Assembly: GCA_963817915.1 (NCBI GenBank)
Contig: CAWFQL010000016.1
Span: forward strand, 128,171 to 192,170
DNA: 64,000 nucleotides
Source: an uncultured candidate division Zixibacteria bacterium
Lineage (GTDB): Bacteria; Zixibacteria; MSB-5A5; UBA10806
Direction: 5' to 3'
In this document: one piece after another, positions 5,706 to 26,961 of the stretch
Numbering within the stretch: position 1 is the stretch's first letter
How the letters are laid out: each line of letters begins with the position of its first letter
Notes under the pieces: model-generated
Seen by the model: only the letters and a program-made list of their open reading frames with translations
What the model was told of the DNA's origin: nothing
The model's database searches: none
Translations under genes and position numbers: made by a program

Positions 5706-6659
5706 ATGGACAAAACGTTAAAACTTGTCATCGGTGCGGTCACAATCCTATGCCTGTCTATTTTCTTTGCGGCATCTGCGTCTTCCAAGCAATACAGCAG
5801 ACAGGAAATGATTGAGAAATCCGCGGCTTGTTTCGATTGTCATTCGGAGCAAGTCACATCTCTGGCCGGAACGCCTCACCAAATCGGCGCCGCCACAGAT
5901 CTAAAGTCACCAGTAACGGTAGGATGTATCGGATGCCATGACGGATGGGAAAAGCATCTCGAAGGGCCGTCAACCGAGAACATCAAGAAACCATCCAACG
6001 CCAGCCAGGCTGATCAGGCCGAAATCTGCGGCCGTTGTCACGTGACAACCCATCAGCAGGCGATGGTTTCGACAGACCCTCATGTCCGAGGCAATGTCAC
6101 ATGCCTTACCTGCCATTCGATTCACGGCAACAAGACGGCCAAGCTGACAAAAGATGGCGATGATAATTATTGCGCGTCGTGTCATACTAATGTCATGCTT
6201 GAATTCAAACGCCGTTCGGCTCATCCTCTAAATTCGGGCAATATTCGCTGCACAAGCTGTCACGCTCTCTCGTCCATAAAGGACAAGACATTGGCAGTGG
6301 GCATCGACTGGACTTGCCAGAATTGCCATTCCGACAAATCGGGACCGTTCCCGTATGAGCATCCGGTGGTCAATAATCATCTGGTCAATGGCGGCGGCTG
6401 CACGGAATGTCATCAACCTCACGGCTCTAATAACGATCGTTTGTTGAACGAGCCGGATAGAAGACTTTGTCAGCAATGCCATTCGACTCCGCCCGGCCAT
6501 TTCACGAATCATGACGGTCTGGGCAGCAAGCTCGAATGTCAAAATTGTCATTCGGATATTCACGGTTCATTTGATAATAGAAAACTCCTTGATCCCAATT
6601 TGGGAACAAGGTATTTCCCGGATTGTTTCCAGTCCGGCTGTCACATATTCGGCAATTAA
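5706..6659 (+). CDS. Periplasmic decahaem c-type cytochrome (MtrA/OmaB-like)
   Basis: N-terminal signal peptide. Ten canonical CxxCH motifs plus one possible CX4CH (CFQSGCH) in 317 aa. Confidence 0.8.
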   Translation: MDKTLKLVIGAVTILCLSIFFAASASSKQYSRQEMIEKSAACFDCHSEQVTSLAGTPHQIGAATDLKSPVTVGCIGCHDGWEKHLEGPSTENIKKPSNASQADQAEICGRCHVTTHQQAMVSTDPHVRGNVTCLTCHSIHGNKTAKLTKDGDDNYCASCHTNVMLEFKRRSAHPLNSGNIRCTSCHALSSIKDKTLAVGIDWTCQNCHSDKSGPFPYEHPVVNNHLVNGGGCTECHQPHGSNNDRLLNEPDRRLCQQCHSTPPGHFTNHDGLGSKLECQNCHSDIHGSFDNRKLLDPNLGTRYFPDCFQSGCHIFGN

Positions 6660-6668
6660 GGAGGGGCG

Positions 6669-8216
6669 ATGAAAACGGTTAACAAAATCTTGATCGCCGC
6701 GATTCTGACTATTTTTACCACAAGTCTGGTATTTGCTGGTGGCAGCGGCGACCTAAAACTCGGTTATACTTATCTTTCCGATAAGGGAAATCTGGCAATG
6801 AGCCAGCCGACATTCAATGATTATAAAGGTATCGGGCTCTCTCTTGAAAATTTCAGATATCAGTGCAGCAAGGGAACGATTTTCCGCGCGGACCTGAAAA
6901 ATATCACTCTCGACAATCGCAATCTCAATCTCGGTATCGAAAAAGCGGGCCTATGGGGCCTCAACGCCAACTTGAACAAGTATCGCAGGATTTACGATTT
7001 CGAAGGTAAGGATGCGACCAAGCGCGACCAATTTGGAAGCGATCTTTGGGTAAATCTGAATAAGAGACTGAGAATATTCGGCGGATTTTCATCGATTGGA
7101 TTGAAGGGGAAAATCGACGATTCATTCAATCTCGGCGCGGATGCTCCCCGTCAGATGGAATACAGTCAAAAGAATTACAATGTCGGCGCCAGAATTAATT
7201 GCAATGGCGGCATGTTCCAGGCCGAGTATTTGAAAATAAATTACAAAGATAAAAAGATTTCCGATAGAGACCAGGACCGTCAGAATGTAAGGCTTAACGC
7301 TCTGATGCCGGTTTTGAAGAATAATCGATTGATCGCGTCCGGCGGATTCCAATCATTCGAGACAAAATACACCGCCAGCGGCTTTAAGATCAAATCGAAT
7401 ACAGTTTGGGGCGGTGGCCTTTTGAATTTGCCGCATCATTTTTCGGTTAATTATAATTTCATCTTCAATCGCGCCGGTTCCGATAGCGATATGGTCAAGA
7501 CCGACAATATCGCCAATACGGTTTATTTGAATCATGTCTGGCCAAATCTCGCCGGTTTGACAGTCGGTTATCAGAACGATATCCGCGACGATTTCGACAA
7601 GCAATTAAAATCCAATTCATATTATTTCTCCGGATGGGTTACCAAAAACCGTTGCGAATTGAGGGCAGACTACGGCTCGCGCGCCGAAGATGTAAAGAAG
7701 GGCACGAGACTGGTCGGCAACGAAGACCGCACCCGATTCAAAGTTCAGACCAAATACCGTTATACCGATGCCACCTGGCTGGGATTGTCGTACGAGGGCA
7801 AGCAACGCAAGAATGATGATATCGGAAGCAAAGCCGACTTCAATCGCTTTGGTGCTCAATGCGCCGTAAAATTTGGCGATCTGTTTAATCTCAATGGCGG
7901 CTATTTCTACGCCACCGGAAAATATAAAAATATCGAATCCGAATTCAAATTCACAGATCATGAATTATTCGGCGATATTACATTAAAAGAATTTTGCAGA
8001 TTAACACCCGGATTCGGCGCGCTTTATTATAGAAGCAAACGCGATCTTGATATTGAGCATTTCAATCTCAGATTCAGCGGCACATACAGGCTGGTCTCTG
8101 ATTTTGAATTGGAAGCGATTTACAACGTTTACAATTTCGATGATTTTCTTGTTAGCGACAGATATTATACTTCAAACATAGTTGAAATAAACTTAATTAA
8201 GGGATTTTCATTCTAA
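6669..8216 (+). CDS. Outer-membrane beta-barrel protein, putative porin component of a porin-cytochrome conduit
   Basis: Signal peptide, alternating amphipathic beta-strand pattern, terminal ...KGFSF (C-terminal Phe). Flanked by multihaem cytochromes with short intergenic gaps (9 and 16 nt). Confidence 0.55.
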   Translation: MKTVNKILIAAILTIFTTSLVFAGGSGDLKLGYTYLSDKGNLAMSQPTFNDYKGIGLSLENFRYQCSKGTIFRADLKNITLDNRNLNLGIEKAGLWGLNANLNKYRRIYDFEGKDATKRDQFGSDLWVNLNKRLRIFGGFSSIGLKGKIDDSFNLGADAPRQMEYSQKNYNVGARINCNGGMFQAEYLKINYKDKKISDRDQDRQNVRLNALMPVLKNNRLIASGGFQSFETKYTASGFKIKSNTVWGGGLLNLPHHFSVNYNFIFNRAGSDSDMVKTDNIANTVYLNHVWPNLAGLTVGYQNDIRDDFDKQLKSNSYYFSGWVTKNRCELRADYGSRAEDVKKGTRLVGNEDRTRFKVQTKYRYTDATWLGLSYEGKQRKNDDIGSKADFNRFGAQCAVKFGDLFNLNGGYFYATGKYKNIESEFKFTDHELFGDITLKEFCRLTPGFGALYYRSKRDLDIEHFNLRFSGTYRLVSDFELEAIYNVYNFDDFLVSDRYYTSNIVEINLIKGFSF

Positions 8217-8232
8217 GAAGGAGAGGGAATCT

Positions 8233-9288
8233 ATGAAGAAGATTCTACTAATCACTGCGGCCCTGGCTATCTTGCTGTTCTTGGTTTCTGGATGCGAACG
8301 GAAGGTAGTCAATCAGGCTAGCAATGACGCAAACACAACGTGTTTCATGTGCCATAACGGCGACGGCCGTATCGAGACCGCCGACGCTCAATGGCGGAAC
8401 TCACTGCACGGTTCAGGCAGATTGACATTCGACACCAACCGTTCTGGCTGCTCGGCATGCCATACTCAGCCCGGTTTTATTGAACAGGTAAATACCGGCG
8501 GAACCGCTAGCGCTCCATATGCCAATATCACGGCTATCGGATGCCATACCTGCCATATGCCGCATGAGTCTGGCAATCTTGACCTCAGGACCACAGCCGC
8601 GGTCGCGTTGCTCGATGGTTCTACATTTGACCACGGCGAGGCGAATCTTTGCGCCAGCTGCCATCATTCTCGTTTGGCAGTATCAGTTATAGCTGATGCC
8701 GGCGACAGCATTTCGCTCACAAGCAGCCGTTGGGGCCCGCATCACGGCCCGCAGGGCGACCTTATCAATGGTACTAATGCTTATGAATATGCCGGAGTCA
8801 CTTACCCGACATCGAGCCCTCACGCCGCTGCGATCACCAATGCATGCATTGGATGCCACATGGGCAGCGCAGTGATTGAAGAAGGTTACAAGGTCGGCGG
8901 TCATAGCTGGAACATGGTTGACGCGGCAGACGAATCTATTAATCTTGCTGACAATTGCGTAGCATGCCATGAAAGCATGCCTGAAGGCGCTGCAAGTTAT
9001 GACGAAATGACCGTTTCGGTTAATTGGAATGGCGCGGATACGACGGTAAATTGCCAGAGCTTCATCGTATTCCTGTCCGATTCGTTACAGACACTACTTG
9101 TCGCTGACTCTCTCTTAACCAGCAGTGGCAGCGTAATTACTCAGACGGTTGAAGCCGGCAAAGCCGGAGCAATCTATAATCTGAAATTTATCCAGGAAGA
9201 TCGTTCCGAGGGCATTCACAACTACCCATATTCATTGGCTCTCTTGACTTCAGCTATTGACTATTTGAATGATCATCCAGCACCGTAG
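8233..9288 (+). CDS. Hexahaem c-type cytochrome lipoprotein, probably cell-surface
   Basis: Lipobox LVSGC. Six CxxCH motifs. Confidence 0.75.
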   Translation: MKKILLITAALAILLFLVSGCERKVVNQASNDANTTCFMCHNGDGRIETADAQWRNSLHGSGRLTFDTNRSGCSACHTQPGFIEQVNTGGTASAPYANITAIGCHTCHMPHESGNLDLRTTAAVALLDGSTFDHGEANLCASCHHSRLAVSVIADAGDSISLTSSRWGPHHGPQGDLINGTNAYEYAGVTYPTSSPHAAAITNACIGCHMGSAVIEEGYKVGGHSWNMVDAADESINLADNCVACHESMPEGAASYDEMTVSVNWNGADTTVNCQSFIVFLSDSLQTLLVADSLLTSSGSVITQTVEAGKAGAIYNLKFIQEDRSEGIHNYPYSLALLTSAIDYLNDHPAP

Positions 9289-9304
9289 GATCATTCTCTA
9301 AGAT

Positions 9305-9340
9305 AAAAGCCCTCGTCACAATGACGGGGGCTTTTTTTAT
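9305..9340 (+). terminator. Rho-independent terminator
   Basis: aaaagccctcgtcacaatgacgggggctttttttat: a GC-rich stem followed by a T7 tract, directly after the cytochrome stop. Confidence 0.6.
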
Positions 9341-9351
9341 TGGCTGTTTTT

Positions 9352-10749
9352 CTATAATGAGTAAATTTCGTTGGGTGCCGGGAATTCAACCGATGCATAT
9401 CCGCGGGATTTAAGATTGTCTTTTAAGGGCAACGCCTGATCCTGTTCGCCATGGACTAAGAAAATATTCTTTAACCTATCCGGCGATACGTTCTTTACAT
9501 AATTAATCAATTCGTCTTTATCGGCATGAGCGCTAAAAACATCCATAGTCTTTACTTTGGATCGAACCTGATATTCCTCGCCGAATATCTTCACTATTTT
9601 TTCGCCGTCCATAATTTTGCGCGCCAAGGTATCGGGGGCGGCATATCCCACAAGCAGAATCAGGTTGCGGTGGTTTTCAATGTTATTTTTTAGGTGATGC
9701 AGGATTCGGCCGCCTTCCGCCATCCCCGAGCCGGCGATAATGATGTGCGGATATGTAAGCCCATTGAGATTTTTCGATTCCTCAACGTCCCGGATATACT
9801 TCAAACGTCCAAATCCAAAGGGATCATCGTGATTTTGCAGGAATATTCTGAAGGCTTCCCGATCGAAACATTCGGGGTGCATTCTGAAGACATCCGTAGC
9901 GTTGCAGGCCAGCGGGCTATCGACAAAAATCGGCATATCGGGAATGCGGTTTTGATCAAACAACTTATGCAGTATATAAACCAGCAATTGGGTTCTACCG
10001 ATCGCGAACGCCGGAATTATTACTTTGCCTCCGGCGCTTGCCACTTCCCTTATAGTTTCCGCAAGCTCTTCCTCGACATCGGTGAGATGGCTGTGATTGC
10101 GATTACCGTAGGTGCTTTCCATGATTAAAATATCGATATCCCAGAAATAGTTGGGATCGCGCAGTATCGGCATATTGAATCGGCCTATATCTCCTGAAAA
10201 ACCGAGACGATATTTCTTGCCCTTTTCATTAATATCGAGAAGAATCCCCGATGAGCCCAAAATATGTCCAGCATCCAGGAATGTCACCGATATGCCCGGT
10301 GTTATCGTAAAACTTTTATCGTACTGAATACCTACAAATGACGACAAGGCGGCTTCCGCGTCTTCAATGGTATATAGGGGTTCGATTAACGGTTCATGCT
10401 GTTTTCGTCGGATTTTATTGACCCATTCGGCATCCTTTTCCTGCAAATATGCAGTGTCTCTGAAGAGATATTGGCAGAGATCAACCGTTGCTGAAGTTGC
10501 GTAAATCGGCCCGGAGAATCCCGCCTTTACGAGATTTGGGATATTGCCGCTGTGGTCAATATGGGCATGCGAGAGTAGCATGGCGTCAATTTTGGTAACA
10601 TCGAATGGGAAATTTCGGTTTTTCTCGAATGTATCTTTGCGATGACCCTGGAACAACCCGCATTCCAGGAGAATTGTCTTACCATTAATTGCGATAAGGT
10701 GCTGTGACCCGGTGACGGTTTGAGCGCCACCGATAAATTGTATTTTCAT
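9352..10749 (-). CDS. MBL-fold beta-CASP family RNA-metabolising hydrolase
   Basis: Metal-binding motif HAHIDHSG, beta-CASP domain and C-terminal RNA-specificity domain. 465 aa. Confidence 0.7.
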   Translation of the reverse strand: MKIQFIGGAQTVTGSQHLIAINGKTILLECGLFQGHRKDTFEKNRNFPFDVTKIDAMLLSHAHIDHSGNIPNLVKAGFSGPIYATSATVDLCQYLFRDTAYLQEKDAEWVNKIRRKQHEPLIEPLYTIEDAEAALSSFVGIQYDKSFTITPGISVTFLDAGHILGSSGILLDINEKGKKYRLGFSGDIGRFNMPILRDPNYFWDIDILIMESTYGNRNHSHLTDVEEELAETIREVASAGGKVIIPAFAIGRTQLLVYILHKLFDQNRIPDMPIFVDSPLACNATDVFRMHPECFDREAFRIFLQNHDDPFGFGRLKYIRDVEESKNLNGLTYPHIIIAGSGMAEGGRILHHLKNNIENHRNLILLVGYAAPDTLARKIMDGEKIVKIFGEEYQVRSKVKTMDVFSAHADKDELINYVKNVSPDRLKNIFLVHGEQDQALPLKDNLKSRGYASVEFPAPNEIYSL

Positions 10750-11500: not shown

Positions 11501-13651
11501 ATGAGAATCGTAAATAAATCTATTGTCAGGGCAATAAGAATTGTGTTTTTCGGCTTATTGCTTCTGGTTATTTTTGTTGTAAACACATTCGGACAATTCC
11601 TTGAATATTCTAATTCATCGCTATGGTCGAATGTTACTGCAATAAAAGCTTCAGGAAACTACGCATATTGTCAATTTACCGAAGGACTTGGCATACTCGA
11701 TATCTCAGATCCGGCCAATCCATCCCTCATTGGAAAATTCGCAATCCCCGGATATTCACTCGCGATCGATGTTTCGGGAAGCTATGCGTTCGTGGCGGCA
11801 TCGGACGGCTTGAGAATTTACAATGTCTATTCACCTCAGAATACTGTACTTCTATCGATATATAATGGGCATGTTTCGGTAAGGGATGTTTGTGCCAGCG
11901 GCGCTTATGCGTATTTGGCGGCGCAGGATCAATTTGAAATAGTTGATATCAGCAATCCATATTCTCCATACCGTACCGGATATATCGATCAAATTTCCGC
12001 ATCCATTGTTGCAGCTGCAGATGGCTATGCTTATATCTCAGATAATAGCCAGCCAAATTATCGCGTCAATATAATTAATGTGCAAAATGCAGCTAATCCA
12101 GATTTAATAACCCAATTTCAGGCATCGAATTTTGTTTCTGATCTGGCAGTTCAGGGTGATCGATTATATGTTTTGTTAGGCGATGCGGGCACCATGAATG
12201 GAGGCATCCAGATATTCGATATTAGCAACCCCAATAATCCAAATTCATTAGGCGAACTTGACATATTTGGATCACCACGCAATATCGAGATTGCCGGGTC
12301 TTATGCCTATATTGCAAATCTCTGGAGAGGACTCGATGTCATCGATATTTCAAATCCCGAAAGTCCAACATTGGTGGCCGAGAGAATTACTACGGCCGCA
12401 TTTGGAGTTTCGGTTTCAGGTGATTATGCATTCGTGGCCGATGAACCATTTGGAGTGATTGCATTTGATAAGAGCGATCCGCAGAACCCCGAGCAAATTG
12501 GAGGGTATCAGCCGCCGGGAGAAATTTGGAACCTGACAGTTGTAGATACACTTCTTTATGTAGCAGAACTAAATAAAGCCATGTCCATAGTGAATATCGC
12601 CGATCCGGCGCATCCGAATGTAATAGGACAACTCAGCGTTTATAATATTTGGGGCGATATCCTTGTGAATGGAGGTTATGCTTATATAAAAAACTATTCA
12701 CATCTTTTGGTAATAAATATAACTGACCCAACCAATCCATCTCTTGTCACGTCATTTTATCCTCTCGGCTGTGCCATGTGCCAGGCAATAAGAGGCAATT
12801 ATGCGTTCCTTTCAGAAGGTGATTGCTATAGTCCGAGCTTCACCGGAATGGAAATCATTGACATCACAGACCCCTCGTCCCCGATTTCAATAGGCTCGTA
12901 TGCGACCCCCGGTACGGCGATGGATTTGAAGTTAGTCGGAAATTATGCTTTTATAATATACAGATATGCCAATGAAAATCCATCAGCCGGTATGCAAGTC
13001 GTTGATATTTCTGATCTCGAAAACCCACAATTTGTTGCGGGCTATGATTTGCATTCTCCAGCATCGATGGAAATTGTCGGAAATTATGTGTTTATTGCGG
13101 ATGAAGCAAATGGGCTTAAGATTGTTGACATTTCCGATCCAGCAAATCCGACCTTTGAAGGACGCTATACGCCATATTCAGGAAATCCACAGCATGTCTC
13201 GATCAGTGGAAACTATGCGTTTCTTAGCAATAGAATTTGCCTAACAGCTGTTGACGTCTCAGATCCATCGAATCCAAGTTTCGTTGATCAATTTTGCACC
13301 CCCGGACAGCCGATGATGACAGATGTGGCAGGCCATGATATTTATCTTGCCGATAGATATGCGCTGACGGTCCTGAGATTCACCGGCAATTGCACGGGTG
13401 TATCTGGTGATGCCAATGACGACGGAGCATTCAACAGTCTTGATATCGAGTATTCCATAAATTATTTTAAGGGGTCTCAGGCGCCTCCCCCCTGTCAGTT
13501 GGATTGCTCTCCTAACGAATTGCTGTATAGCGAAGCCGATGCCAATGGCGATTGTCGTTTCAATGGATTCGATATTACTTACGGGGTAAATTATTTAAAA
13601 GGAAACGGGCCAGCACCGGAATCGTGTCCTGACTGCCATTTCTATCGATAA
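11501..13651 (+). CDS. Secreted LVIVD-repeat beta-propeller protein with C-terminal dockerin-type repeats
   Basis: Many repeats of GNYAY/GSYAF..A....GL.I.DISNP.NP. The C-terminus has two DANxDG...D calcium-binding dockerin-like repeats. Confidence 0.55.
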   Translation: MRIVNKSIVRAIRIVFFGLLLLVIFVVNTFGQFLEYSNSSLWSNVTAIKASGNYAYCQFTEGLGILDISDPANPSLIGKFAIPGYSLAIDVSGSYAFVAASDGLRIYNVYSPQNTVLLSIYNGHVSVRDVCASGAYAYLAAQDQFEIVDISNPYSPYRTGYIDQISASIVAAADGYAYISDNSQPNYRVNIINVQNAANPDLITQFQASNFVSDLAVQGDRLYVLLGDAGTMNGGIQIFDISNPNNPNSLGELDIFGSPRNIEIAGSYAYIANLWRGLDVIDISNPESPTLVAERITTAAFGVSVSGDYAFVADEPFGVIAFDKSDPQNPEQIGGYQPPGEIWNLTVVDTLLYVAELNKAMSIVNIADPAHPNVIGQLSVYNIWGDILVNGGYAYIKNYSHLLVINITDPTNPSLVTSFYPLGCAMCQAIRGNYAFLSEGDCYSPSFTGMEIIDITDPSSPISIGSYATPGTAMDLKLVGNYAFIIYRYANENPSAGMQVVDISDLENPQFVAGYDLHSPASMEIVGNYVFIADEANGLKIVDISDPANPTFEGRYTPYSGNPQHVSISGNYAFLSNRICLTAVDVSDPSNPSFVDQFCTPGQPMMTDVAGHDIYLADRYALTVLRFTGNCTGVSGDANDDGAFNSLDIEYSINYFKGSQAPPPCQLDCSPNELLYSEADANGDCRFNGFDITYGVNYLKGNGPAPESCPDCHFYR

Positions 13652-14052: not shown

Positions 14053-14712
14053 TTGAAAAACATTGAACCGATACCATTGATCGATACAGCAATCGATCAA
14101 AAGAAAAAGCCCAACTTGATTGCCCATCTCGAAAGCGAGGACTGTCTTGTTAATCTTGCGGGCGATTATGATTATCTGACCTCCGGTTACTATCTATCGC
14201 AGGAGATGGAAAACCAGGACAAGAATATTCATCCTACCTGCAAGGAAATACTCGACGCCTATGTCACCCCGCTATCCCTGGAGAAGGCTCGATTGAATAA
14301 TATAGCGGTGCCCGAGTTCTATGTCACCAATGGTCACTTCGAGCCGCCGGTTATTATCGACACCATGAATCCATTCATGTCGCGTCATAGTGTTGTGCTG
14401 AAGACCAGCTACCAGGAACGGGCGGCGAAATCATTGACACGAAACTTCACTTATGCCATTTGTTGTCAGGAACTTCCGCCGGATTCGCGTGTTGTATATT
14501 TCCATTCGATTCTCGGCTGGTGCGCGGCATCCAAATATAGAACTATTTCTCAGCAGATCTGGGACGTTTTCAAAATTCCGATTGTCAAGGTTCGTCTGAT
14601 AGCCTTAGAAAACGGCCAGTTTCTTTTGAGTTCATTGGACCCATTACCGGTCAAGAAGCTGACACCGCGTGAAGCAATTTTTATCAATGAGAATGTAAAA
14701 TGGCAAATATAG
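14053..14712 (+). CDS. Hypothetical protein overlapping the ATP-grasp gene; possibly a RimK-like ATP-grasp N-terminal (RLAN-type) partner
   Basis: TTG start. The 3' end overlaps the ATP-grasp ORF by 13 nt. The RLAN assignment is inference from context only. Confidence 0.35.
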   Translation: MKNIEPIPLIDTAIDQKKKPNLIAHLESEDCLVNLAGDYDYLTSGYYLSQEMENQDKNIHPTCKEILDAYVTPLSLEKARLNNIAVPEFYVTNGHFEPPVIIDTMNPFMSRHSVVLKTSYQERAAKSLTRNFTYAICCQELPPDSRVVYFHSILGWCAASKYRTISQQIWDVFKIPIVKVRLIALENGQFLLSSLDPLPVKKLTPREAIFINENVKWQI

Positions 14713-15585
14713 GTGTTTTCATAGAACGATATACCATCTCCAATTCCGAGGAGATGGGCGCATTGATGAAACTAGGACAGGTCGCCCACCGTCACGGGCA
14801 CAGGCTCGATGTTTTATTCAGGCCCGATATGTACAAAATTCCTCACTATGATGCAATCTTCATAAGGGCACTAACCGACCCATTGAATACATCTTATATT
14901 GCATCAAGGTTAGCGCAGCTTCAGGGTGTCCGCGTAATCGATGATCCTGATTCGATTTTCATCTGCTGTGACAAGGTTAACATGTATCGTCATCTTATTA
15001 AGGCCAATGTCCCAATGCCGGAGACGGTTTTTCTCGAGGAATCGGACTTAACATATGAAAAAGGTTCGGAGCTACTTGATAAATTGGGAATTCCATTGGT
15101 ACTGAAGGCGCCCAACAGCAGTTTTTCTATGTATGTCGAAAGAGTAAGCACCCCCGATGAATATGTCAATGTCGGCAAACGATTTCTCCGAAGAGCGGAT
15201 ATGATCGTTGCCCAAAAATTCATTCGTTCGCAATTTGATTGGCGTGTCGGTGTACTGGCCGGTGAGCCGCTTTATATCTGCCAGTATGTAATTCCAAAAC
15301 GTCGATGGAAGATAATGACCTACACTCACAATGGCACCGCTATCCATGGTGATGTCAGGGGCTTTAGCATTGATAAGGCCAACCCGCGATCTTCTTGAAA
15401 TCGCTGTTAAGGCCGCCGCCGCTATCGGCACAGGTCTTTATGGAGTGGACCTAAAACAGGTAGATGATGATTTCACGGTTATCGAGGTCAATGATAACCC
15501 TACGATCGGCGAAGGCGAAGAAGATCAGAAGGCGCCGGATATCTATGACAGGCTGATTCATTACCTGGTCGGTGATAAGGGCTAG
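14700..15585 (+). CDS. RimK-family ATP-grasp ligase, apparently interrupted by a 1-nt frameshift near 15385-15395
   Basis: The ATP-grasp core (LVLKAPNSSFS...WRVGVLAGEPLYICQY) is in frame 3 up to 15398. The conserved C-terminus (AVKAAAAIGTGLYGVDL...VIEVNDNPTIG) continues in frame 1 from 15331. Removing one C from the CCC run at about 15388 restores a single ORF. Confidence 0.6.
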
Positions 15586-15589
15586 GCAG

Positions 15590-16042
15590 ATGGCCGAATC
15601 TGTCATTATCCGGCAAGCGACAATTGAAGACATCGACGAATTATACCGAATAGAAGAAGCCGGATTCGAACACGACCGTTTCGATAAAAAACAATTCCGT
15701 CATTTAATCACCAAAGCCAATTCCACTGTTTTAATCCTAATTCACAATAACAATATCTGCGGATATAGCATCATGCTCTGGCGCAAGAATTCCAGGCGCG
15801 CCAGGCTCTATTCCATAGCAATCGATCCCCAGGCACACGGCAGGGGGCTCGGCGGCCAGCTTCTGAGAGCCAGCGAAGAGCTGTCGTTGTCATTGGGGTG
15901 CAATGAAATCAGCCTCGAAGTACGAGTCGACAATAAACCAGCGATTCATGTTTACGAACGGCATGGCTATCATGAAATCAAGCCATTGATCGGCTATTAT
16001 TCCGATGGCGCCAACGGTATGCGGATGCTCAAGCGGCTTTAG
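15590..16042 (+). CDS. GNAT family N-acetyltransferase
   Basis: Motif A Q/RxxGxG/A (HGRGLGGQLL) and the C-terminal YERHGY motif. Alternative upstream start at 15572. Confidence 0.7.
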   Translation: MAESVIIRQATIEDIDELYRIEEAGFEHDRFDKKQFRHLITKANSTVLILIHNNNICGYSIMLWRKNSRRARLYSIAIDPQAHGRGLGGQLLRASEELSLSLGCNEISLEVRVDNKPAIHVYERHGYHEIKPLIGYYSDGANGMRMLKRL

Positions 16043-16222: not shown

Positions 16223-16287
16223 GGTGGGCGAAATAAAAAGGGGATGAGCGAGCCCATCCCCTCAAAACAATTACATAGAAATCGGAT

Positions 16288-17592
16288 TTAAAAATCGAAA
16301 TCTACCAGCGTAGTTAGAATATCTTCTTTGATCGGATTGTCTTTACCGGTTTGACGGTGAGTATATTCAGCATGCAATGCTACATTGACTGCGGTCCAGT
16401 CACCGAGATAATATCGCGCGAGCAATGAGATCGCGGATATTTTTTTGTCATTATCGTATGATGGTGGCGTGACAAAATTATAGAGCCCGGAAAGGACAAG
16501 CCTATTGTCCATCAATCCGTTATAATCAAGCTGGACAAATCCACCGGTAAATGTGTACGCCTTGGTAGTGTCTAAATCATTGAATTTCTTATTGTCGTTG
16601 CCGTTCATGATGAGGGTTGTCAGATTGAATGATTCATAATTCAGGCTTACATGTCCGCCGATTCTCATGAAGCTCTGGTTATCGGTGCCATGATCATCTC
16701 CCATATTTGGAAGATTGAGATATGCCGAATGAATTGGTTGCCAGCCGGTATAGGCAAATATCCCTATTCGTTGTCCGGCGCTTTGTCCGTCGCCTTTGCC
16801 AATTGTTTGCGAGAGGCTCAGGTAGATATCCTTGTAAGTATTATTATCCGGATTCCCCCCAGTGCCATTAACAATTCCCAGGCCATATTTGAATCCCGTC
16901 TTAAAATGGCTGGAGGCTTCCACACCAAACTGATTTTCGGAAAAACTGAATCGATTTCCTGAATAACCGAACGGATTTAGACTGCTGGGCGAATTGAAAT
17001 TGTAAATCTCATAGGGCTGGATTAGATAGAGCGAACGTTTGGCACTGATTTGCTGGTAGGCTGGCTCGAATCGTCCGATTCTCAAATTTAGCTTATCTTC
17101 GAAGATGTTGCTGAATACGATATTGGCCGATTCCAAAGCTCCAATCTGGGACGGATTATATCCCGCTTGCGATGCTGAATAATCCATTGTTGGCACATCG
17201 ACTCTTGGAGTATAGACAATAAGAAACGACACATTCTTATGCAGAACACCCGCCGCCAATAAATCAAATCCATAGTAATGAAATCCAGAAGTTGTCTCTT
17301 TGGTGGTTTCTTGTGTCGCATTATTTAATGTATGTCCTACCGATGTTCTTATTGAAATTGGCGGCATGGTTTCGAATACATTCTTTTCATTGCCTTCTTG
17401 TCCGGGAATCTGATAACCATTATCGCGGTATCTCTGCCCGAAATCATTGAGCTTGGTGAAGGCCACATGGCACATATTGCAATTAAACCCGTTCTTACGA
17501 GCGAAGGCGGGTATCGATTGTGCGGTTTTGGGAATAAACAACGTTATTCCAACGAAAACCGTCACTAATAATAGAATGATTGTTTTTCTCAT
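16288..17592 (-). CDS. Outer-membrane beta-barrel protein with an N-terminal single CxxCH haem-binding motif
   Basis: Signal peptide (MRKTIILLLVTVFVGITLF), CNMCH motif about 25 aa after the cleavage site, beta-barrel-like body ending ...LVDFDF. The start overlaps the upstream ccp stop. Confidence 0.5.
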   Translation of the reverse strand: MRKTIILLLVTVFVGITLFIPKTAQSIPAFARKNGFNCNMCHVAFTKLNDFGQRYRDNGYQIPGQEGNEKNVFETMPPISIRTSVGHTLNNATQETTKETTSGFHYYGFDLLAAGVLHKNVSFLIVYTPRVDVPTMDYSASQAGYNPSQIGALESANIVFSNIFEDKLNLRIGRFEPAYQQISAKRSLYLIQPYEIYNFNSPSSLNPFGYSGNRFSFSENQFGVEASSHFKTGFKYGLGIVNGTGGNPDNNTYKDIYLSLSQTIGKGDGQSAGQRIGIFAYTGWQPIHSAYLNLPNMGDDHGTDNQSFMRIGGHVSLNYESFNLTTLIMNGNDNKKFNDLDTTKAYTFTGGFVQLDYNGLMDNRLVLSGLYNFVTPPSYDNDKKISAISLLARYYLGDWTAVNVALHAEYTHRQTGKDNPIKEDILTTLVDFDF

Positions 17593-17602
17593 ATCCCCTC
17601 CC

Positions 17603-18673
17603 TCACTTCGGCATTTCGGATTGCGGAATAGGTTTGGCATCTCGAATTTCGGGATTCAAACTGGTTATTGAAACTTTCAGAAATGCTACCAACGCCGCAG
17701 CTTCTGATTTGGATAGCCCCAACGGCACCATCAAGGGATCGAGAGTCTCTTTATTATCCCCACCGCCCCTGTTATAGAAATTGACTACATCCTCGAGGGT
17801 TTTCTCACCGCCGGTATGCATATAAGGCGCCCGTAGCGCGGCATCTCTTACTGTCGGGGTCTTGAATGCTCCCTTATCGGCCGGATTTTTGGTTACATCG
17901 TAACGGCCATTATCGGTTTTATTCGGACCGGTTTGAGTCACTCCCAAATTATGGAATCTGCCATCGCTGAAATACGATCCCCAATGGCATGCAGTGCAAT
18001 GTCCCTTGCCGTTGAAAATTTCGAGACCCATCTTTTCCTGTTTGGTTAAGGCATTCTGGTCGCCGCGGACATATCTATCGAATGGCGAATCAGTGGTCAC
18101 TACAGTTCTCTCGTAGGCGGCAATAGCTTGAGCCACCTGATCAACTGTGATCGGGGTTGTCCCGAAAACATCCTTGAATTCCTGAACATATCCCGGAACA
18201 TCATTGAGTGTCTTTACCATTACGTCGTGGGTATTCCCCATTTCTATTGGATTCTGAACCGGGCCCTTGGCTTGTTCTTCAAGGCTTGGCGCTCTGCCAT
18301 CCCAGAATTGCAGAGGGCTGTGAGCGGCATTCGATACTGGTGGAGCTCTTCTTCCCCCAATTTGCCCACGGATACCTGTACTTGTGGGCCCCGCATCTGA
18401 CCAGCCCTTAGCTGGATCATGACATGTGGCACAGGCGACTGTGCCATCCTGTGAAAGCCTGTTGTCAAAATATAATTGTTTACCTAATTGAATTTTCGCT
18501 GTTGTCTGCGGATTGTCCGGCGGTGCGATTACCGCTGGAAGATTGCCCGGCCGTTCCGGCCCCTTCATATGCACGCCGACAGATGTTATTGGAGTCTGCG
18601 AATTTTCACCCGCCCATGCCATTAACGGCACAAGCATTACCGCAACCAACAACATCCCCAAAATCTTGTTCAT
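17603..18673 (-). CDS. Dihaem cytochrome c peroxidase (CcpA/MauG family)
   Basis: Signal peptide. Two CxxCH motifs (CATCH, CTACH) with the family-typical spacing and the conserved GRFHNLG region. Confidence 0.85.
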   Translation of the reverse strand: MNKILGMLLVAVMLVPLMAWAGENSQTPITSVGVHMKGPERPGNLPAVIAPPDNPQTTAKIQLGKQLYFDNRLSQDGTVACATCHDPAKGWSDAGPTSTGIRGQIGGRRAPPVSNAAHSPLQFWDGRAPSLEEQAKGPVQNPIEMGNTHDVMVKTLNDVPGYVQEFKDVFGTTPITVDQVAQAIAAYERTVVTTDSPFDRYVRGDQNALTKQEKMGLEIFNGKGHCTACHWGSYFSDGRFHNLGVTQTGPNKTDNGRYDVTKNPADKGAFKTPTVRDAALRAPYMHTGGEKTLEDVVNFYNRGGGDNKETLDPLMVPLGLSKSEAAALVAFLKVSITSLNPEIRDAKPIPQSEMPK

Positions 18674-18773
18674 TCAGCCTCCTTTTATGTTTTTAAGTCC
18701 AAATTGCAGGCATATAACCCTTCATGGATAATTCTATTCAGATTTGTATTCTACGTCAAGGCATTTTTGATTA

Positions 18774-19727
18774 ATGAGAATCTATTTAGATATTGAAATT
18801 GATGAGGCAATCGATTACTTTCAGCAAACTATGAATCCGCCAATACCGTATATGGGAGAAATCTTCGCGCTCATGGCGGCGATTGTCTGGGGTTTTGCTG
18901 TTATATTTTTTAAAAAGAGCGGCGAGACTGTTCATCCGATCGCTTTGAATATTTTCAAAAATATCCTGGCAGTTATTCTGCTTATTCCGACTATCTGGAT
19001 CTTCGCCCGGGATATTTCGTTTTCGGCCCCCATCAAGGATTATCTATTATTATTGCTAAGCGGTACATTGGGAATCGGAGTCTCGGATACATTATTTTTT
19101 ATTTCATTGAATATGCTTGGCGCGGAACTAATATCAATTGTTAGCTGTACTTATAGCCCGTTTATAGTGGCAATGTCGGTTTTCTGGCTTAATGATACGC
19201 TGACATTTTTGCAGATCATGGGAATTGTTCTGATTGTCATGGCTGTCCTGGGAACGACATATCAAAAAAAATCCGGCCATCTTGAAAGACGAAAAGCATT
19301 CTGGGGATTAATTTGGGGAATCCTGGCGATGGCTGTAAATGCTGTCGGCATTGTAATAATAAAACCTTTGCTTGATCGCTCTCCGTTACTCTGGGTGACA
19401 GAAACTCGTCTTATTGGAGGAGCTATCTTTCTCATAATCGTATTGCTCTTTCACCCTCAACGGAAGACAATCGTTTCTTCTATATCGGGTGCGCGATCAT
19501 GGGCTTACACGATAGCCGGATCATTTACCGGCGCATATTTATCAATGATATTTTGGCTGGCCGGTATGAAATTTACTCAGACTTCGATCGCGGCGGCGCT
19601 GAACCAAACTAACAGTATATTTGTGTTTATCCTCGCAGTAGTTTTTCTCAAAGAAAAATTAAATATACGCCGAGCAATCGGCGTAACTCTCGCGGTCGCA
19701 GGAGCGCTAATGGCGACATTTGGCTAA
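18774..19727 (+). CDS. DMT-superfamily (EamA-like) transporter
   Basis: Ten predicted TM helices in two EamA-like halves. The true start may be the internal Met at about 18846. Confidence 0.65.
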   Translation: MRIYLDIEIDEAIDYFQQTMNPPIPYMGEIFALMAAIVWGFAVIFFKKSGETVHPIALNIFKNILAVILLIPTIWIFARDISFSAPIKDYLLLLLSGTLGIGVSDTLFFISLNMLGAELISIVSCTYSPFIVAMSVFWLNDTLTFLQIMGIVLIVMAVLGTTYQKKSGHLERRKAFWGLIWGILAMAVNAVGIVIIKPLLDRSPLLWVTETRLIGGAIFLIIVLLFHPQRKTIVSSISGARSWAYTIAGSFTGAYLSMIFWLAGMKFTQTSIAAALNQTNSIFVFILAVVFLKEKLNIRRAIGVTLAVAGALMATFG

Positions 19728-19812: not shown

Positions 19813-20109
19813 GTGGTTATGAAAAAGAAAAACACCGAAATTATAACTTTCAAGGTCGATGAGGCCACGCTGGGCGCCATGAAAGGAATAACCAACCGTT
19901 CAAAATTTATTCGCGCGGCGGTATTTTCGGCTCTCAACGGCGTCTGCCCATTATGCAGAGGGGCTGGAGTTCTAACTCCCAAGCAGATCGATCATTGGAA
20001 CACATTCGCCGAGGACCATACGCTTCGTCAATGCCCCGATTGCCATGAAACCCATCTGGCCTGCTCCAAGCCGCCGTCCCGCAAAAAAACGAATGGAAAA
20101 CGGAAATGA
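19813..20109 (+). CDS. Ribbon-helix-helix DNA-binding protein fused to a Cys4/His zinc-ribbon; putative metal-responsive regulator of the downstream ABC operon
   Basis: N-terminal RHH signature (ITFKVDEATL...NRSKFIRAAV). C-terminal CPLCRG...CPDCHETH. The stop overlaps the start of the substrate-binding protein gene. Confidence 0.45.
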   Translation: MVMKKKNTEIITFKVDEATLGAMKGITNRSKFIRAAVFSALNGVCPLCRGAGVLTPKQIDHWNTFAEDHTLRQCPDCHETHLACSKPPSRKKTNGKRK

Positions 20110-21014
20110 AAACGTACCGTACGAGAGACTTCACTATATCGATATTATTGGCGGCAATCTTTTCAGTATTCTCAATTTCGAATTCTCTAGCGACTCAACC
20201 TAAAGTTAAAGTCGTTGTCAGTATTTTGCCGCAAGCATACTTTGTCGAGCGAGTCGGCGGAGCCTTGGTCGATGTCTCCGTATTAGTCGGCCCGGGCCAG
20301 TCTCCGCATACCTACGAACCAACTCCACAACAAATCGCCCGAATCGCCGAAGCCGATATATATTTCACTATCGGGGTACCTATGGAAATCCAACTTGTTG
20401 AACGAATCAAGGCCATGCGCGAAATCCCCATCGTGGATATTCACGAAGGGGCAAAGATTCGCTATACATCTTCTGATGAAACCGATTCGGATGAAAAGGC
20501 CGGCGAGCCCGATCCTCATACCTGGCTTTCGCCATCCAACGCCATAATTGAAGCTCAAAATATCTGCAATGCTCTAAAGAAAATATATCCGGATTCGGCC
20601 GGCTTTTTCGATAGCAATATGAAATCATTTCAAACCGATCTCGTTAAAATCAGCGAACGCATTGCCAGGATTCTGGCGCCATTTAAGGGAAATCAGTTTT
20701 TTGTCTATCATCCAGCATTCGGATATTTTGGCGACTCCTACGGATTGAAGCAAGTGCCGGTAGAAATCGATGGTAAAGAACCTAGCGCGAAGCAAGTGGC
20801 GGAATTGATAACTAAGGCCAAAGCCGCGGGCGTGAAAGTTATATTCGTCCAGGCGCAGTTTTCATCGAAAGGTGCCGAGGCTATTGCCAATGATATCGGT
20901 GGAACCGTAATACCTATCAATGATCTCGCGAAAGATTATTTGAAAAATTTGGAAGATATCGCCGATAAACTCGAAAAAGGCCTATCACAAGAGAAGCATT
21001 CTAATGGAAAATAA
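20106..21014 (+). CDS. Metal (Zn/Mn) ABC transporter substrate-binding protein, ZnuA/TroA family
   Basis: Signal peptide. Cluster 9 fold with an acidic/His-containing loop (SSDETDSDEKAGEPDPHTW). Confidence 0.75.
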   Translation: MKTYRTRDFTISILLAAIFSVFSISNSLATQPKVKVVVSILPQAYFVERVGGALVDVSVLVGPGQSPHTYEPTPQQIARIAEADIYFTIGVPMEIQLVERIKAMREIPIVDIHEGAKIRYTSSDETDSDEKAGEPDPHTWLSPSNAIIEAQNICNALKKIYPDSAGFFDSNMKSFQTDLVKISERIARILAPFKGNQFFVYHPAFGYFGDSYGLKQVPVEIDGKEPSAKQVAELITKAKAAGVKVIFVQAQFSSKGAEAIANDIGGTVIPINDLAKDYLKNLEDIADKLEKGLSQEKHSNGK

Positions 21015-21765
21015 CGAAGTAATCAAAATAGAAAATCTATCATTCGCCTACAATGGCAGTTTGATTTTAGAGAATGTCAATCTCGCCATTGACAGAAATG
21101 ATTTTGCAAGTATTCTCGGTCCCAATGGCGGCGGTAAGACTACTCTTCTAAAAATCATGCTTGGCTTGCTTAGACCCAATAAGGGTACGATAAAAATTCT
21201 CGGATTATCTCCGGAACAGGCACATTCAAAAATCGGTTATGTGCCGCAAAGTTTTCAATTCGACAGGCAATTCCCCGTAAGAGTAAATGATGTTGTCCTA
21301 ATGGGACGGCTTGGAAGACCGGGCGGATTGGGGCCATTTAAGAAATCAGATAAGTCCGCCGCTATCGACGCTCTACATGAAGTTGGCCTTTCCGAATTAG
21401 TGACGCGGCCATTCTCGGAGCTCTCCGGGGGCCAAAGGCAACGAGTTTTGGTCGCCCGCGCGCTCGTGACCGATCCTGAAATCCTGCTGCTTGATGAGCC
21501 TGCCGCTGGAATGGATGTCGCAATTCAGGAAGAATTCTACGCGCTTTTGAAAATGCTCACACAACGTTTGACGGTAGTTTTGGTAACTCATGATATTGGC
21601 TTTGTTTCGACATTTGTGAATAGAGTAGTCTGTGTTAATCGTGAGGTGGTTGTTCATCCCACCAGCGAGATTACCGGCGAGATGATCTATCAGCTATACG
21701 GCAGCGATGTCCGTCTGGTGCGTCACGACCATCGCTGTGCCGAGGGAGGGCATGAGAGTGGCTGA
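21004..21765 (+). CDS. Metal ABC transporter ATP-binding protein (ZnuC-like)
   Basis: Walker A GPNGGGKTT, signature LSGGQRQR, Walker B LLLDEP. Confidence 0.8.
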   Translation: MENNEVIKIENLSFAYNGSLILENVNLAIDRNDFASILGPNGGGKTTLLKIMLGLLRPNKGTIKILGLSPEQAHSKIGYVPQSFQFDRQFPVRVNDVVLMGRLGRPGGLGPFKKSDKSAAIDALHEVGLSELVTRPFSELSGGQRQRVLVARALVTDPEILLLDEPAAGMDVAIQEEFYALLKMLTQRLTVVLVTHDIGFVSTFVNRVVCVNREVVVHPTSEITGEMIYQLYGSDVRLVRHDHRCAEGGHESG

Positions 21766-22603
21766 GTTTTTCAGTGCCCTACATAATTATTCATTTATCC
21801 AGTATGCGCTGTTAACCGGGCTTCTGGCCAGTATCGCCTGCGGCGTGGTGGGAAGCTATGTTGTCACCCGCAGAATAACCTATGTCGCTGGCGGCATATC
21901 TCATTTTATTCTCGGCGGCATGGGCGCGGCGCGCTACCTGAATGTTGTCTATGGCTGGGAAAAGCTGACTCCCCTGCATGGCGCGATTGTGTCGGCTCTT
22001 TTGGCGGCAATAATTATCGGTATGGTCAGCATGCGCGCCAGACAGCGGGAAGATACGGTTATCGGGGCTCTCTGGGCGATCGGTATGGCGGTTGGAATTC
22101 TCTTTATATCTAAGACACCCGGATATAATCAAGACCTCATGAGTTATCTCTTTGGCAATATTCTCATGGTGACATCAAGCGATCTCTGGCTGATTATCGG
22201 CCTCGACGCTTTAGTAGTGCTTGTTGGAATATTCTTTTACAACCAGTTATTGGCGGTTTGCTTCGATGAAGAGTTCGCCCGTCTGCGCGGCGTCAATGTA
22301 GAATTTTTCTATCTTCTGCTCTTATGCCTGACAGCGTTAACAGTGGTATTACTCGTGACTGTCGTGGGAATAGTCATGGTTATAGCGTTGTTGACATTGC
22401 CGGCGGCGATTGCCGGTCATTTCTCCAAGACGCTCCGTCAGATGATGGTCGTGTCGACTATTCTCAGCGCCTTTTTTACGACATTAGGCCTGGGGCTCAG
22501 CTACAGCCCAAATTTACCTGCCGGAGCCACAATCATTGTCCTGGCTGGCGCGGCCTATCTGATAGTAGCCGTAGCTTCCAGATTAATTAAGACCCATCGT
22601 TGA
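21752..22603 (+). CDS. Metal ABC transporter permease (ZnuB-like)
   Basis: Polytopic membrane protein of the ABC-3 family. Overlaps the ATPase gene by 14 nt. Confidence 0.75.
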   Translation: MRVAEFFSALHNYSFIQYALLTGLLASIACGVVGSYVVTRRITYVAGGISHFILGGMGAARYLNVVYGWEKLTPLHGAIVSALLAAIIIGMVSMRARQREDTVIGALWAIGMAVGILFISKTPGYNQDLMSYLFGNILMVTSSDLWLIIGLDALVVLVGIFFYNQLLAVCFDEEFARLRGVNVEFFYLLLLCLTALTVVLLVTVVGIVMVIALLTLPAAIAGHFSKTLRQMMVVSTILSAFFTTLGLGLSYSPNLPAGATIIVLAGAAYLIVAVASRLIKTHR

Positions 22604-26277: not shown

Positions 26278-26961
26278 TTAATCCTTATTGCCTTTAGGCC
26301 CATTTCTTCTGAATCGAATTACAAATGCCGAAAGCCCTGCTCCAAACAAGAGCAACGTGGACGGTTCAGGGACTGGACCCGGAATAGGATCGATAGGGAG
26401 ACCATTGTCATCGACAGCCTGCACGCCATCAACTCTAACCACCATGTCTTCATAATCCCAATCACCATATGCCCAATCTTCCCAAGCCAGAATATACGAA
26501 TTGGGAACATACTGCCCATTTACTTCCGTGCGATATACATAAAGGTGATCAGCTCCATCGCGATTTAGCGCTCGTTCTGAATACCAATGCTCATCCATCT
26601 CTGGTCTTTCCTGCCCGTTGTAGTTTGTCCATATATTAAATCCGAAAACTCCGTCAAGGTCAGGTAGGTAAGCTGATGGTTGAAGTCCAGTAAGGATTCC
26701 TCCAATTAACCAATTTTCCATGCTTGTGCCGTCATACCACCCAAAGGCTGTGCCTCTGCTAAGTGAACTATATTGGTTTATGATAGTTGCATTACTCTGA
26801 TTAATTTGAAAAAACAATTCACCACTCATAATATCGTTGTTGGCATTAATTGAATATCCGAGTGCATTCATAACAATCTGCAATGATCCCAAGTTCTGAC
26901 AGAGAGATATTTCACTTATTGGACCTAAAACAATCAAAAACGTTATGAACATTTTCTTCAT
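26278..26961 (-). CDS. PEP-CTERM sorting-domain secreted protein with a DUF4114-like motif
   Basis: Signal peptide. C-terminal VPEPSTLLLFGAGLSAFVIRFRR (PEP motif, TM helix, basic tail). DWDYEDMVVRV just upstream. Confidence 0.7.
   Translation of the reverse strand: MKKMFITFLIVLGPISEISLCQNLGSLQIVMNALGYSINANNDIMSGELFFQINQSNATIINQYSSLSRGTAFGWYDGTSMENWLIGGILTGLQPSAYLPDLDGVFGFNIWTNYNGQERPEMDEHWYSERALNRDGADHLYVYRTEVNGQYVPNSYILAWEDWAYGDWDYEDMVVRVDGVQAVDDNGLPIDPIPGPVPEPSTLLLFGAGLSAFVIRFRRNGPKGNKD

Follow-up and report, generated by a model that had tools for sequence, protein, structure and literature searches.

In the 64,000-nt stretch of DNA from an uncultured Zixibacteria bacterium analysed here (the window, with all coordinates counted from its first letter), two co-directional minus-strand genes form a cassette in which a dihaem enzyme of the bacterial cytochrome c peroxidase (bCCP)/MauG superfamily (17603..18673, -; 356 aa) is encoded directly upstream of a Cyc2-type cytochrome-porin (16288..17592, -; 434 aa). 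The cytochrome-porin belongs to an already known type of protein. What appears undescribed in the literature that we searched is the conserved coupling of Cyc2 to a dihaem enzyme that is predicted to be tyrosine-ligated, as well as the extent of the cassette. Specifically, no description of a Cyc2-CCP/MauG pairing was found in the searchable literature, which mostly comprises work outside subscription journals and includes McAllister et al. 2020 (PMC7029218).

The product of the downstream gene has three parts. Residues 1 to 26 (MRKTIILLLVTVFVGITLFIPKTAQS; 17515..17592, -) make up a signal peptide with an initial MRK, a 17-residue hydrophobic core and a terminal A-Q-S; cleavage was placed by eye according to the A-x-S rule, and in homologues the signal stretch mostly ends in A-x-A or A-x-S directly before IPAFARK. 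A monohaem cytochrome domain follows (residues 27 to 78; 17359..17514, -), running from SIPAFARKN through CNMCH to TKLNDFG. Its CNMCH (residues 38 to 42; 17467..17481, -) is the single haem motif of the protein, and the two cysteines of this motif are the only ones among the 434 residues. The remainder (residues 79 to 434; 16291..17358, -) is a predicted 16-strand outer-membrane beta-barrel that ends in DFDF, followed by the stop codon (16288..16290, -). An initial annotation, made from the DNA sequence, had recognised the signal peptide, the CNMCH motif and a long barrel-like region with its DFDF end, all of which stand; it had, however, counted 435 aa and had set the motif about 25 residues into the mature chain, where it begins 12 residues in.

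The barrel is borne out by structure prediction. In an AlphaFold2 model built on a 40-sequence alignment (predicted local distance difference test [pLDDT] 77.8, predicted TM score [pTM] 0.78), 16 beta strands extend from residue 79 to the end, and the N-terminal cytochrome domain takes the form of three short helices at low confidence, as expected without haem. Comparison of the model with the PDB by Foldseek, the type of check that had been proposed for the barrel, returned only 16-strand porins at a probability of 1.00, including PorB, BpsOmp38, Omp32, OmpF, OprP, and OprO, with E values down to 6e-13 (1.3e-10 for OprP, 2o4v; 1.2e-9 for OprO, 4rjw). Scans of the protein against Pfam and NCBIfam gave no match, and searching the PDB by sequence turned up nothing beyond a chance match to a serpin. 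Among the 585 homologues found in a database search, the best 120 (54-66% identical) all carry exactly one CxxCH at the same place, with IPAFARKYGFN before it, which argues that the haem motif is not a chance occurrence. A profile of the clade, searched against 1.84 billion representative sequences, retrieved 3,111 proteins at E <= 1e-3, and the same signature is present in all 129 N-terminally complete representatives among the best 150 of this wider family. The cluster annotations of distant representatives read "hypothetical protein" at best, and a homologue search with one of them (P0210) led to 18 unnamed proteins.

Cyc2 is already defined by the combination of a signal peptide, a lone CxxCH near the N-terminus, and a porin of 16 strands; Keffer et al. 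2021 collected 1,593 homologues of this family (PMC8406198). The fusion is thus not the unusual protein that the initial annotation had expected, and the "haem-loaded porin" offered there as an alternative turns out to be the Cyc2 family in other words rather than a separate option. The published criteria comprise a signal peptide, one CxxCH with AxPxFAR[Q/K][T/Y] upstream and PxL downstream, a length of at least 365 aa, and a 16-strand porin modelled on OprO/OprP; the screening pattern places five residues between the motif Arg and CxxCH, and the PxL, which starts at the fourth residue after CxxCH, is a consensus feature rather than a filter, being common to other cytochromes and not specific to Cyc2 (PMC8406198). 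The consensus of our clade reads A-I-P-A-F-A-R-K-Y-G-F-N-C-N-M-C-H-T-A-F-T-K-L-N-D-F-G. At three non-core positions the window protein departs from the Cyc2 motif: Ala is replaced by Ser, Tyr by Asn, and the PxL Pro by Thr. Its S-I-P-A-F-A-R-K-N retains the PxFARK core with the correct spacing; with Asn at the [T/Y] position, a strict pattern match would reject it. Because of this Asn, its membership in Cyc2 rests on homology to pattern-passing sequences, which include 74 of the 120 close homologues under a strict PxFAR[QK][TY] (55-66% identical). Downstream of the haem site the window protein has T-K-L in place of PxL: here the Leu is invariant, Thr replaces Pro in 61% of close homologues, and Pro is found in 26% of the clade versus 87% of the wider family representatives. 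Its length of 434 aa lies above the published minimum. Going by published signature, length, and modelled fold, we assign the barrel protein as a Cyc2-type fused cytochrome-porin, probably of cluster 3. An indirect link to Cyc2 is provided by the profile-found representatives P0210 and P0144, which occur in a cyc2 + c4-cytochrome layout.

The pairing of the two genes was followed across genomes in a scan with one genome per species, which yielded 80 loci, all from metagenome-assembled genomes (MAGs), with phyla counted from the MAG labels. These labels comprise 22 Acidobacteriota or Aminicenantes, 18 Bacteroidota, 12 Ignavibacteriota or Chlorobiaceae-labelled genomes, and 10 Zixibacteria, one or two each of Planctomycetota, Krumholzibacteria, Calditrichota, Eisenbacteria, Desulfobacterota, Bdellovibrionota, and "Eubacteriales"-labelled genomes, and 7 that are unclassified. 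According to their record titles the hosts come from sediments, peat, permafrost, and soils, and by label most of them belong to heterotrophs of such habitats rather than to known iron oxidisers. Three loci start at a contig edge; in all of the other 77, which have DNA upstream of the barrel gene and span ten or so phyla by label, the barrel gene is directly preceded by an orthologue of the dihaem gene (63-74% identical). The suggestion in the initial annotation to look for the same pairing elsewhere thus found an invariant arrangement. The gap from stop to start measures 10-14 nt in 63 of the 73 pairs measured, and a Shine-Dalgarno-like site precedes the barrel gene in 69 of these 73. Given the recurrence of this spacing and of these sites, translational coupling of the pair, as proposed initially, stays plausible.

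No other gene travels with the pair to a comparable degree. When neighbouring genes were clustered after masking both cassette genes, whose shadow open reading frames (ORFs) had confounded an unmasked run, no other family occurred in more than 7 of the 80 loci, and those seven are closely related Aminicenantes genomes; the cassette thus appears to need no other dedicated partner. Loci that are more alike in one protein tend to be more alike in the other (correlation of pairwise identities: Pearson r 0.74, Mantel p 0.001), and the median pairwise identity is 58% for the barrel and 69% for the dihaem enzyme. With barrels 50-66% identical across the ten or so phyla, the paired clade is unusually uniform compared with published Cyc2 clusters, between which identities are 17-30% (PMC8406198, Fig. 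S7). The arrangement also extends beyond the clade: in three sister-clade representatives, whose barrels are 36%, 33%, and 31% identical, a CCP_MauG gene (51-57% identical) lies directly upstream in each case, and two of the three gene pairs overlap by 4 nt. Further Cyc2 representatives are arranged differently: two stand alone, and in two (P0210 and P0144) the gene is followed immediately downstream by one for a c4-type dihaem cytochrome.

Several loci showed additional features. The cassette is present twice in one Ignavibacteriaceae MAG, with copies about 3.9 kb apart on one contig (L052 4217..6564 and 8094..10441) and identical scores, and one Bacteroidales MAG holds copies on two contigs (L079 and L080). 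In one Ignavibacteriales locus, a second, distant CCP-family gene (33% identical; L072 3646..4629) is located immediately upstream of the cassette's dihaem gene. Both cyc2 + c4 clades have a gene for a CarboxypepD_reg-domain protein upstream of cyc2 (in one of the two loci at L089 297..995); it adjoins cyc2 in one clade and lies one gene away in the other, and it may be a third conserved member of that module.

We next turn to the upstream gene, which had been annotated as a dihaem peroxidase. Membership in the peroxidase family is clear from a match to PF03150 (E 1e-60) and two CxxCH motifs, preceded by a signal peptide (MNKILGMLLVAVMLVPLMAWA). The closest solved structures are the canonical bCCPs 2c1u and 1iqc (E ~1e-62), followed by MbnH (6e1c, 3e-39) and MauG (~1e-30). 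With 240.1 bits against a cut-off of 443.85 for MauG (TIGR03791) and 222.2 bits against 362.85 for MbnH (TIGR04039), the enzyme falls below both orthology thresholds. These scores place it in a separate subfamily, orthologous to neither MauG nor MbnH.

The predicted haem surroundings tell a different story from the overall similarity to canonical peroxidases. Counted over 70 aligned orthologues, both haem-binding motifs (C81/C84/H85 and C226/C229/H230) as well as Trp124, Gln134, and Glu144 are invariant (70/70). The CATCH of haem 1, the peroxide-binding haem (18419..18433, -), is spaced from Ile101, Arg109, Trp124, Gln134, and Glu144 as in the Pseudomonas CCP, where we take the counterparts to be His71, Asn79, Trp94, Gln104, and Glu114. 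The position of the canonical distal His is thus occupied by Ile101 (18371..18373, -; Ile in 68/70), which lies opposite the His of "SIGHGWQ" in 2c1u. Because the distal His is missing, the peroxide-binding haem is probably permanently five-coordinate and would need no reductive activation. Arg109 (18347..18349, -; Arg in 70/70) takes the place of the Ca2+-ligating Asn of bCCPs and MauG; a basic residue in place of the Ca site has a precedent in BthA (PMC6405878). The two full-length sister-clade enzymes that we aligned keep both the Tyr discussed below and the Asn, and they also have no distal His. Since the catalytic Glu144, Gln134, and the inter-haem Trp124 are all invariant, peroxide chemistry is predicted to be retained.

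At haem 2, the electron-transfer haem, the CTACH motif (17984..17998, -) is followed directly after its His ligand by Trp231 (CTACHW; 17981..17983, -), conserved in 69/70 and absent both from the two full-length sister-clade enzymes and from 2c1u (Paracoccus) and 1iqc (Nitrosomonas). Trp231 could be a clade-specific entry point for electrons or a hole-hopping residue. The predicted axial ligand of this haem is Tyr300 (17774..17776, -), which replaces the canonical Met, is invariant in 70/70, and aligns with Met258 of the N. europaea CCP (1iqc); beyond residue 152, the 70 orthologues share no conserved Met. Met315, which lies within an insertion, was considered as an alternative ligand and rejected, as it is Met in only 40/70 and Tyr300 is invariant. 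A profile of the last 81 residues, used for the ligand alignment, has its best match in MbnH (6e1c, E 2e-10), and the invariant Tyr aligns with a Tyr of 6e1c and with Tyr294 of MauG (3l4m; "ILFYNK", residues 270-298), the known axial ligand in that enzyme. The MauG numbering was checked against Thr275 and Pro277, which have been named as Ca ligands (PMC6405878). Canonical enzymes are His/Met-ligated and MauG-type enzymes His/Tyr-ligated (PMC11892367). As the His/Met ligation, the distal His, and the Ca-site Asn of canonical CCPs are all replaced, the dihaem enzyme is, as judged by its predicted ligands, of the MauG type and not a canonical peroxidase.

What might the two proteins do together? 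A c4-type dihaem cytochrome is the proposed periplasmic electron acceptor of Cyc2 in characterised iron oxidisers, and a cyc2 gene followed by one for such a cytochrome corresponds to the classical cyc2-cyc1 layout, that of their rus operon. Because other cyc2 genes adjoin one for a c4-type cytochrome, the simplest reading is that here the dihaem enzyme is the electron acceptor of Cyc2 and ends the chain on H2O2. We thus tentatively favour, at a strength that stops short of outright endorsement, a self-contained conduit: Cyc2 would draw electrons from Fe(II) outside the cell and hand them to the dihaem enzyme for the reduction of H2O2. The initial annotation had already imagined a minimal conduit of this kind; the invariant pairing and the c4-type cytochrome beside other cyc2 genes speak for it. 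The enzyme at its periplasmic end, however, is predicted to be of the MauG type, whose members employ H2O2 as an oxidant, often on the product of an adjacent gene, and its chemistry may thus differ from simple detoxification of peroxide. From the literature, Fe(II) oxidase activity has been reported for a Cyc2 (PMC8406198), cyc1 has been named as a partner of Cyc2 (PMC7914226), and BthA, which is also His/Tyr-ligated, turns over H2O2 with an external donor (PMC6405878).

In such a conduit, periplasmic H2O2 would oxidise the dihaem enzyme straight from the diferric state, without reductive activation. A high-valent form would follow, probably bis-Fe(IV)-like because the second haem is predicted to be His/Tyr-ligated, and its two oxidising equivalents would be discharged by electrons from the Cyc2 haem, supplied by Fe(II) or another reductant, whether beyond the cell or within the pore. 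In sum, this would give 2 Fe(II) + H2O2 + 2 H+ -> 2 Fe(III) + 2 H2O, a reaction catalysed at the cell boundary with neither Fenton chemistry nor any use of cellular reductant. The benefit to the cell would lie in the removal of peroxide at the expense of abundant external Fe(II), which would fit hosts in sediments, peat, and soils with a fluctuating redox state. What the sequences and the model themselves show is the architecture of the two proteins, their families, the replaced ligand positions, and the invariant pairing; we infer which way electrons flow, what donates them, that H2O2 accepts them, and that the two proteins touch.

Several points weigh against this conduit. MauG-type His/Tyr enzymes are generally poor peroxidases and oxidise a protein substrate instead (PMC11892367). 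The physical link between the two proteins is likewise inferred, and the cytochrome domain is a low-confidence part of the model. Nor would the reaction conserve any energy, so that its selective value would lie in protection alone. Moreover, the cluster 3 homologues are those of least certain function within Cyc2 (PMC8406198), and the Cyc2 identity of the barrel protein is predicted from signature, length, and modelled fold.

It is possible, although we rather doubt it, that the cassette instead wires a MauG-type oxidant across the outer membrane, either as a peroxide-driven (or O2-driven) extracellular oxidase without a respiratory link or to install a protein-derived cofactor or a modified haem in Cyc2. 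If this were true, the modification version could explain odd chromophores such as Cyt572, and "iron-oxidation" calls based on Cyc2 in metagenomes of Aminicenantes, Zixibacteria, Ignavibacteria, Bacteroidota, and Krumholzibacteria would not reflect lithotrophic iron oxidation.

Taken as maturation, this would mean that the MauG-type enzyme, with H2O2 or with O2 and a reductant, forms bis-Fe(IV) and modifies Cyc2 before or during assembly, leaving an oxidised or cross-linked Trp/Tyr or an altered haem, and then stands outside the electron path. The substrate proteins of MauG and MbnH (preMADH and MbnP) are encoded in the same operon as the enzyme, and the invariant adjacency and co-variation of our two proteins would agree with a relationship of enzyme and substrate, as would the alignment of Tyr300 with MauG Tyr294 and a C-terminal region most similar to MbnH. 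Proteins are also the actual or supposed substrates of MauG and MbnH (PMC11892367, PMC6405878), and the Cyc2 homologue Cyt572 of Leptospirillum has been reported with an unusual haem group (PMC8406198). We nevertheless regard maturation as unlikely, since the Cyc2 of Mariprofundus PV-1 is active in E. coli with only a haem-maturation plasmid added (PMC8406198), and the sampled Cyc2 clades include some that exist without a dihaem partner. Furthermore, the enzyme as a whole is far closer to canonical peroxidases (E 1e-62) than to MbnH (3e-39) or MauG (1e-30), and it stays below the NCBIfam cut-offs for both. The tight, Shine-Dalgarno-coupled spacing adds a weak argument, as it points to similar levels of both proteins, something that an enzyme acting on a substrate would not require.

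The same wiring could also run outward, with the strongly oxidising bis-Fe(IV) acting through the porin haem on a demanding external substrate such as Mn(II), humic or phenolic matter, or a mineral, or with O2 as the oxidant, since MauG can also be driven by O2 and a reductant. His/Tyr haems are associated with bis-Fe(IV) formation (PMC11892367, PMC6405878), in Ca. Manganitrophus a part in Mn(II) oxidation has been put forward for Cyc2 (PMC9040806), and a role of this kind would suit hosts that are mostly heterotrophs of sediment and soil rather than known iron lithotrophs. However, the substrate is wholly conjectural, only dissolved species are expected to react with one haem that lies buried inside a small pore (PMC9040806), and a high-valent oxidant beside an outer-membrane protein risks self-damage, all of which make an outward oxidase decidedly improbable.

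Finally, the two genes could be independent neighbours that share only a promoter: as in iron oxidisers, Cyc2 would feed the respiratory chain, and the upstream enzyme would be an ordinary peroxide scavenger. This would be in keeping with the well-known stand-alone roles of both families, with Cyc2 genes in Aminicenantes and Krumholzibacteria already called iron oxidases from FeGenie scans (PMC7005843, PMC7914226), and with a separate porin-multihaem cluster in the window that suggests a host able to handle extracellular electrons, but we give it very little credence. It is hard to square with 77/77 loci in ten or so phyla by label with no other common neighbour, with a spacing held at 10-14 nt, with identities that co-vary, and with sister clades that keep the pair at 31-36% identity. 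Moreover, the dihaem enzyme lacks the Met, His, and Asn of ordinary scavenging CCPs, and among the neighbours of the 80 loci no periplasmic carrier or oxidase travels with the cassette.

The local layout of the two genes is best explained by a self-contained operon that runs from a promoter-like site to a terminator-like hairpin (16238..18759, -). Upstream of the dihaem gene, a sigma-70-like promoter candidate, TTGACG-17-TAGAAT (18731..18759, -), agrees with the consensus at 10/12 positions and is located within the 100-nt gap between the dihaem gene and a divergent EamA transporter gene (18774..19727, +); such sites are not more frequent in the region than in shuffled sequence, which makes this weak evidence in which only the position is suggestive. 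A ribosome-binding site (AAAGGAGG) lies 5' of the ATG of the dihaem gene. Between the two genes there is a 10-nt spacer (GGGAGGGGAT; 17593..17602, -) that carries the Shine-Dalgarno site of the barrel gene, with GGGAGGGG 6 nt 5' of the start codon ATG 17592. The gene overlap that had initially been described is seen only with a 450-aa ORF from ATG 17640, which we rejected as the true barrel gene: it does not have the logic of a signal peptide, the Shine-Dalgarno site stands before ATG 17592 instead, and its extension is the shadow of the conserved peroxidase C-terminus, read in another frame. From the best-supported start at ATG 17592, a 10-nt gap separates the genes. An intrinsic-terminator-like hairpin with an 11-bp stem, 6 G-C pairs, and a T tract (16238..16263, -) follows 25 nt past the stop codon of the barrel gene, and a convergent GNAT acetyltransferase gene (15572..16042, +) runs toward it; again, such hairpins are not more frequent in the region than in shuffles, and the position is the suggestive part. 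A scan of the window against Rfam found no RNA gene.

Elsewhere in the window, a cluster of three genes about 7 kb from the cassette (5706..9288, +) encodes, first, a c7/c3-like protein of 317 aa (Paired_CXXCH) in which CxxCH occurs 10 times. The second product, of 515 aa, starts with a signal peptide, ends in GFSF, has no Pfam match, and is probably the barrel; the third, lipoprotein-like (LVSGC) and 351 aa long, combines 6 CxxCH with an MtrC/MtrF-like domain. This porin-multihaem cytochrome cluster indicates that the host has a second, Mtr/Pcc-type system for extracellular electron transfer. Just beyond the EamA gene, an operon for ZnuA/ZnuC/ZnuB-type metal uptake by an ATP-binding cassette (ABC) transporter (19813..22603, +) opens after a 98-aa protein with two Cys pairs (CPLC...CPDC), which may be a small metal-sensing regulator; the operon is not conserved beside the cassette in other genomes. 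At 14053..15585 (+), a RimK-like ATP-grasp gene, preceded by an RLAN-domain gene, is apparently split into 14700..15398 and 15331..15585, which lie in different frames and both match PF08443; this appears to be a frameshift, a pseudogene, or an assembly error. Genes for cell-surface proteins include those for a large LVIVD-repeat beta-propeller protein (11501..13651, +) and a BNR-repeat protein with a C-terminal sorting domain of the type IX secretion system (T9SS; 56233..57723, +), and a PEP-CTERM protein is encoded at 26278..26961 (-). Both this T9SS domain and the nearest homologues point to a host probably within the FCB group (Zixibacteria, Ignavibacteriota, or Bacteroidota-like).

The cassette bears on how cyc2 genes are interpreted. 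As a marker of iron oxidation by microbes, cyc2 is used more widely than any other gene, and FeGenie-like tools count every Cyc2 homologue as potential for it, even though the function of the non-classical (cluster 3) members is openly uncertain. Here, a large and uniform Cyc2 clade, with hosts in ten or so phyla by label, is always packaged with a predicted tyrosine-ligated dihaem enzyme and with nothing else. This gives these homologues a testable function, either peroxide-linked iron oxidation or MauG-like chemistry, in both cases at the cell surface, rather than energy-yielding lithotrophy, and such cyc2 genes would have to be read differently in metagenomic data. The few known His/Tyr dihaem enzymes (MauG, MbnH, and BthA) are also joined by a new subfamily, one with a new kind of partner. 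As a two-gene system, the cassette is small enough for reconstitution in E. coli.

Compared with known systems, the barrel protein resembles the Cyc2 of Mariprofundus PV-1, the Cyc2 of Acidithiobacillus ferrooxidans, and Cyt572 of Leptospirillum (PMC8406198, PMC7029218) in its signal peptide, single N-terminal CxxCH, PxFAR[K] upstream and xKL-N-D-F-G downstream of the haem site, length of ~420-435 aa, 16-strand barrel with OprP/OprO among the nearest solved folds, C-terminal aromatic residue, and evidence of horizontal spread. It differs in that the paired clade is always preceded by a CCP/MauG-family gene, whereas known Cyc2 genes stand alone or precede cyc1. The dihaem enzyme shares with MauG, MbnH, and BthA (PMC6405878, PMC11892367) two c-type haems with a Trp between them, an axial Tyr position on the second haem, the missing distal His on the first, and a gene that adjoins one for a periplasm-routed possible partner or substrate; like BthA, it has a basic residue in place of part of the Ca2+ site. 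In contrast to the situation in MauG and MbnH, its partner is an outer-membrane haem protein and not an amine dehydrogenase precursor or a copper protein. With canonical CCPs (Paracoccus 2c1u, Nitrosomonas 1iqc, Geobacter CcpA/MacA, and Pseudomonas 1eb7), the best sequence matches, it has in common the domain, the Glu/Gln pair, the inter-haem Trp, and a periplasmic location, but Met is replaced by Tyr, the distal His by Ile, and the Ca-site Asn by Arg, essentially invariantly in the clade, and the donor implied by gene context is an outer-membrane cytochrome-porin instead of a soluble cytochrome or cupredoxin. As in cyc2-cyc1, MtoAB, PioAB, MtrCAB, and Pcc, a haem-bearing outer-membrane barrel is encoded beside a periplasmic haem protein that would exchange electrons with it. 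Unlike in those modules, however, the periplasmic partner is an enzyme with a terminal substrate of its own rather than a carrier to the inner membrane, and the module could thus be complete in two genes. It would also be far smaller, with one haem and 16 strands in the Cyc2-type protein compared with ten haems and 26 strands in the Mtr type.

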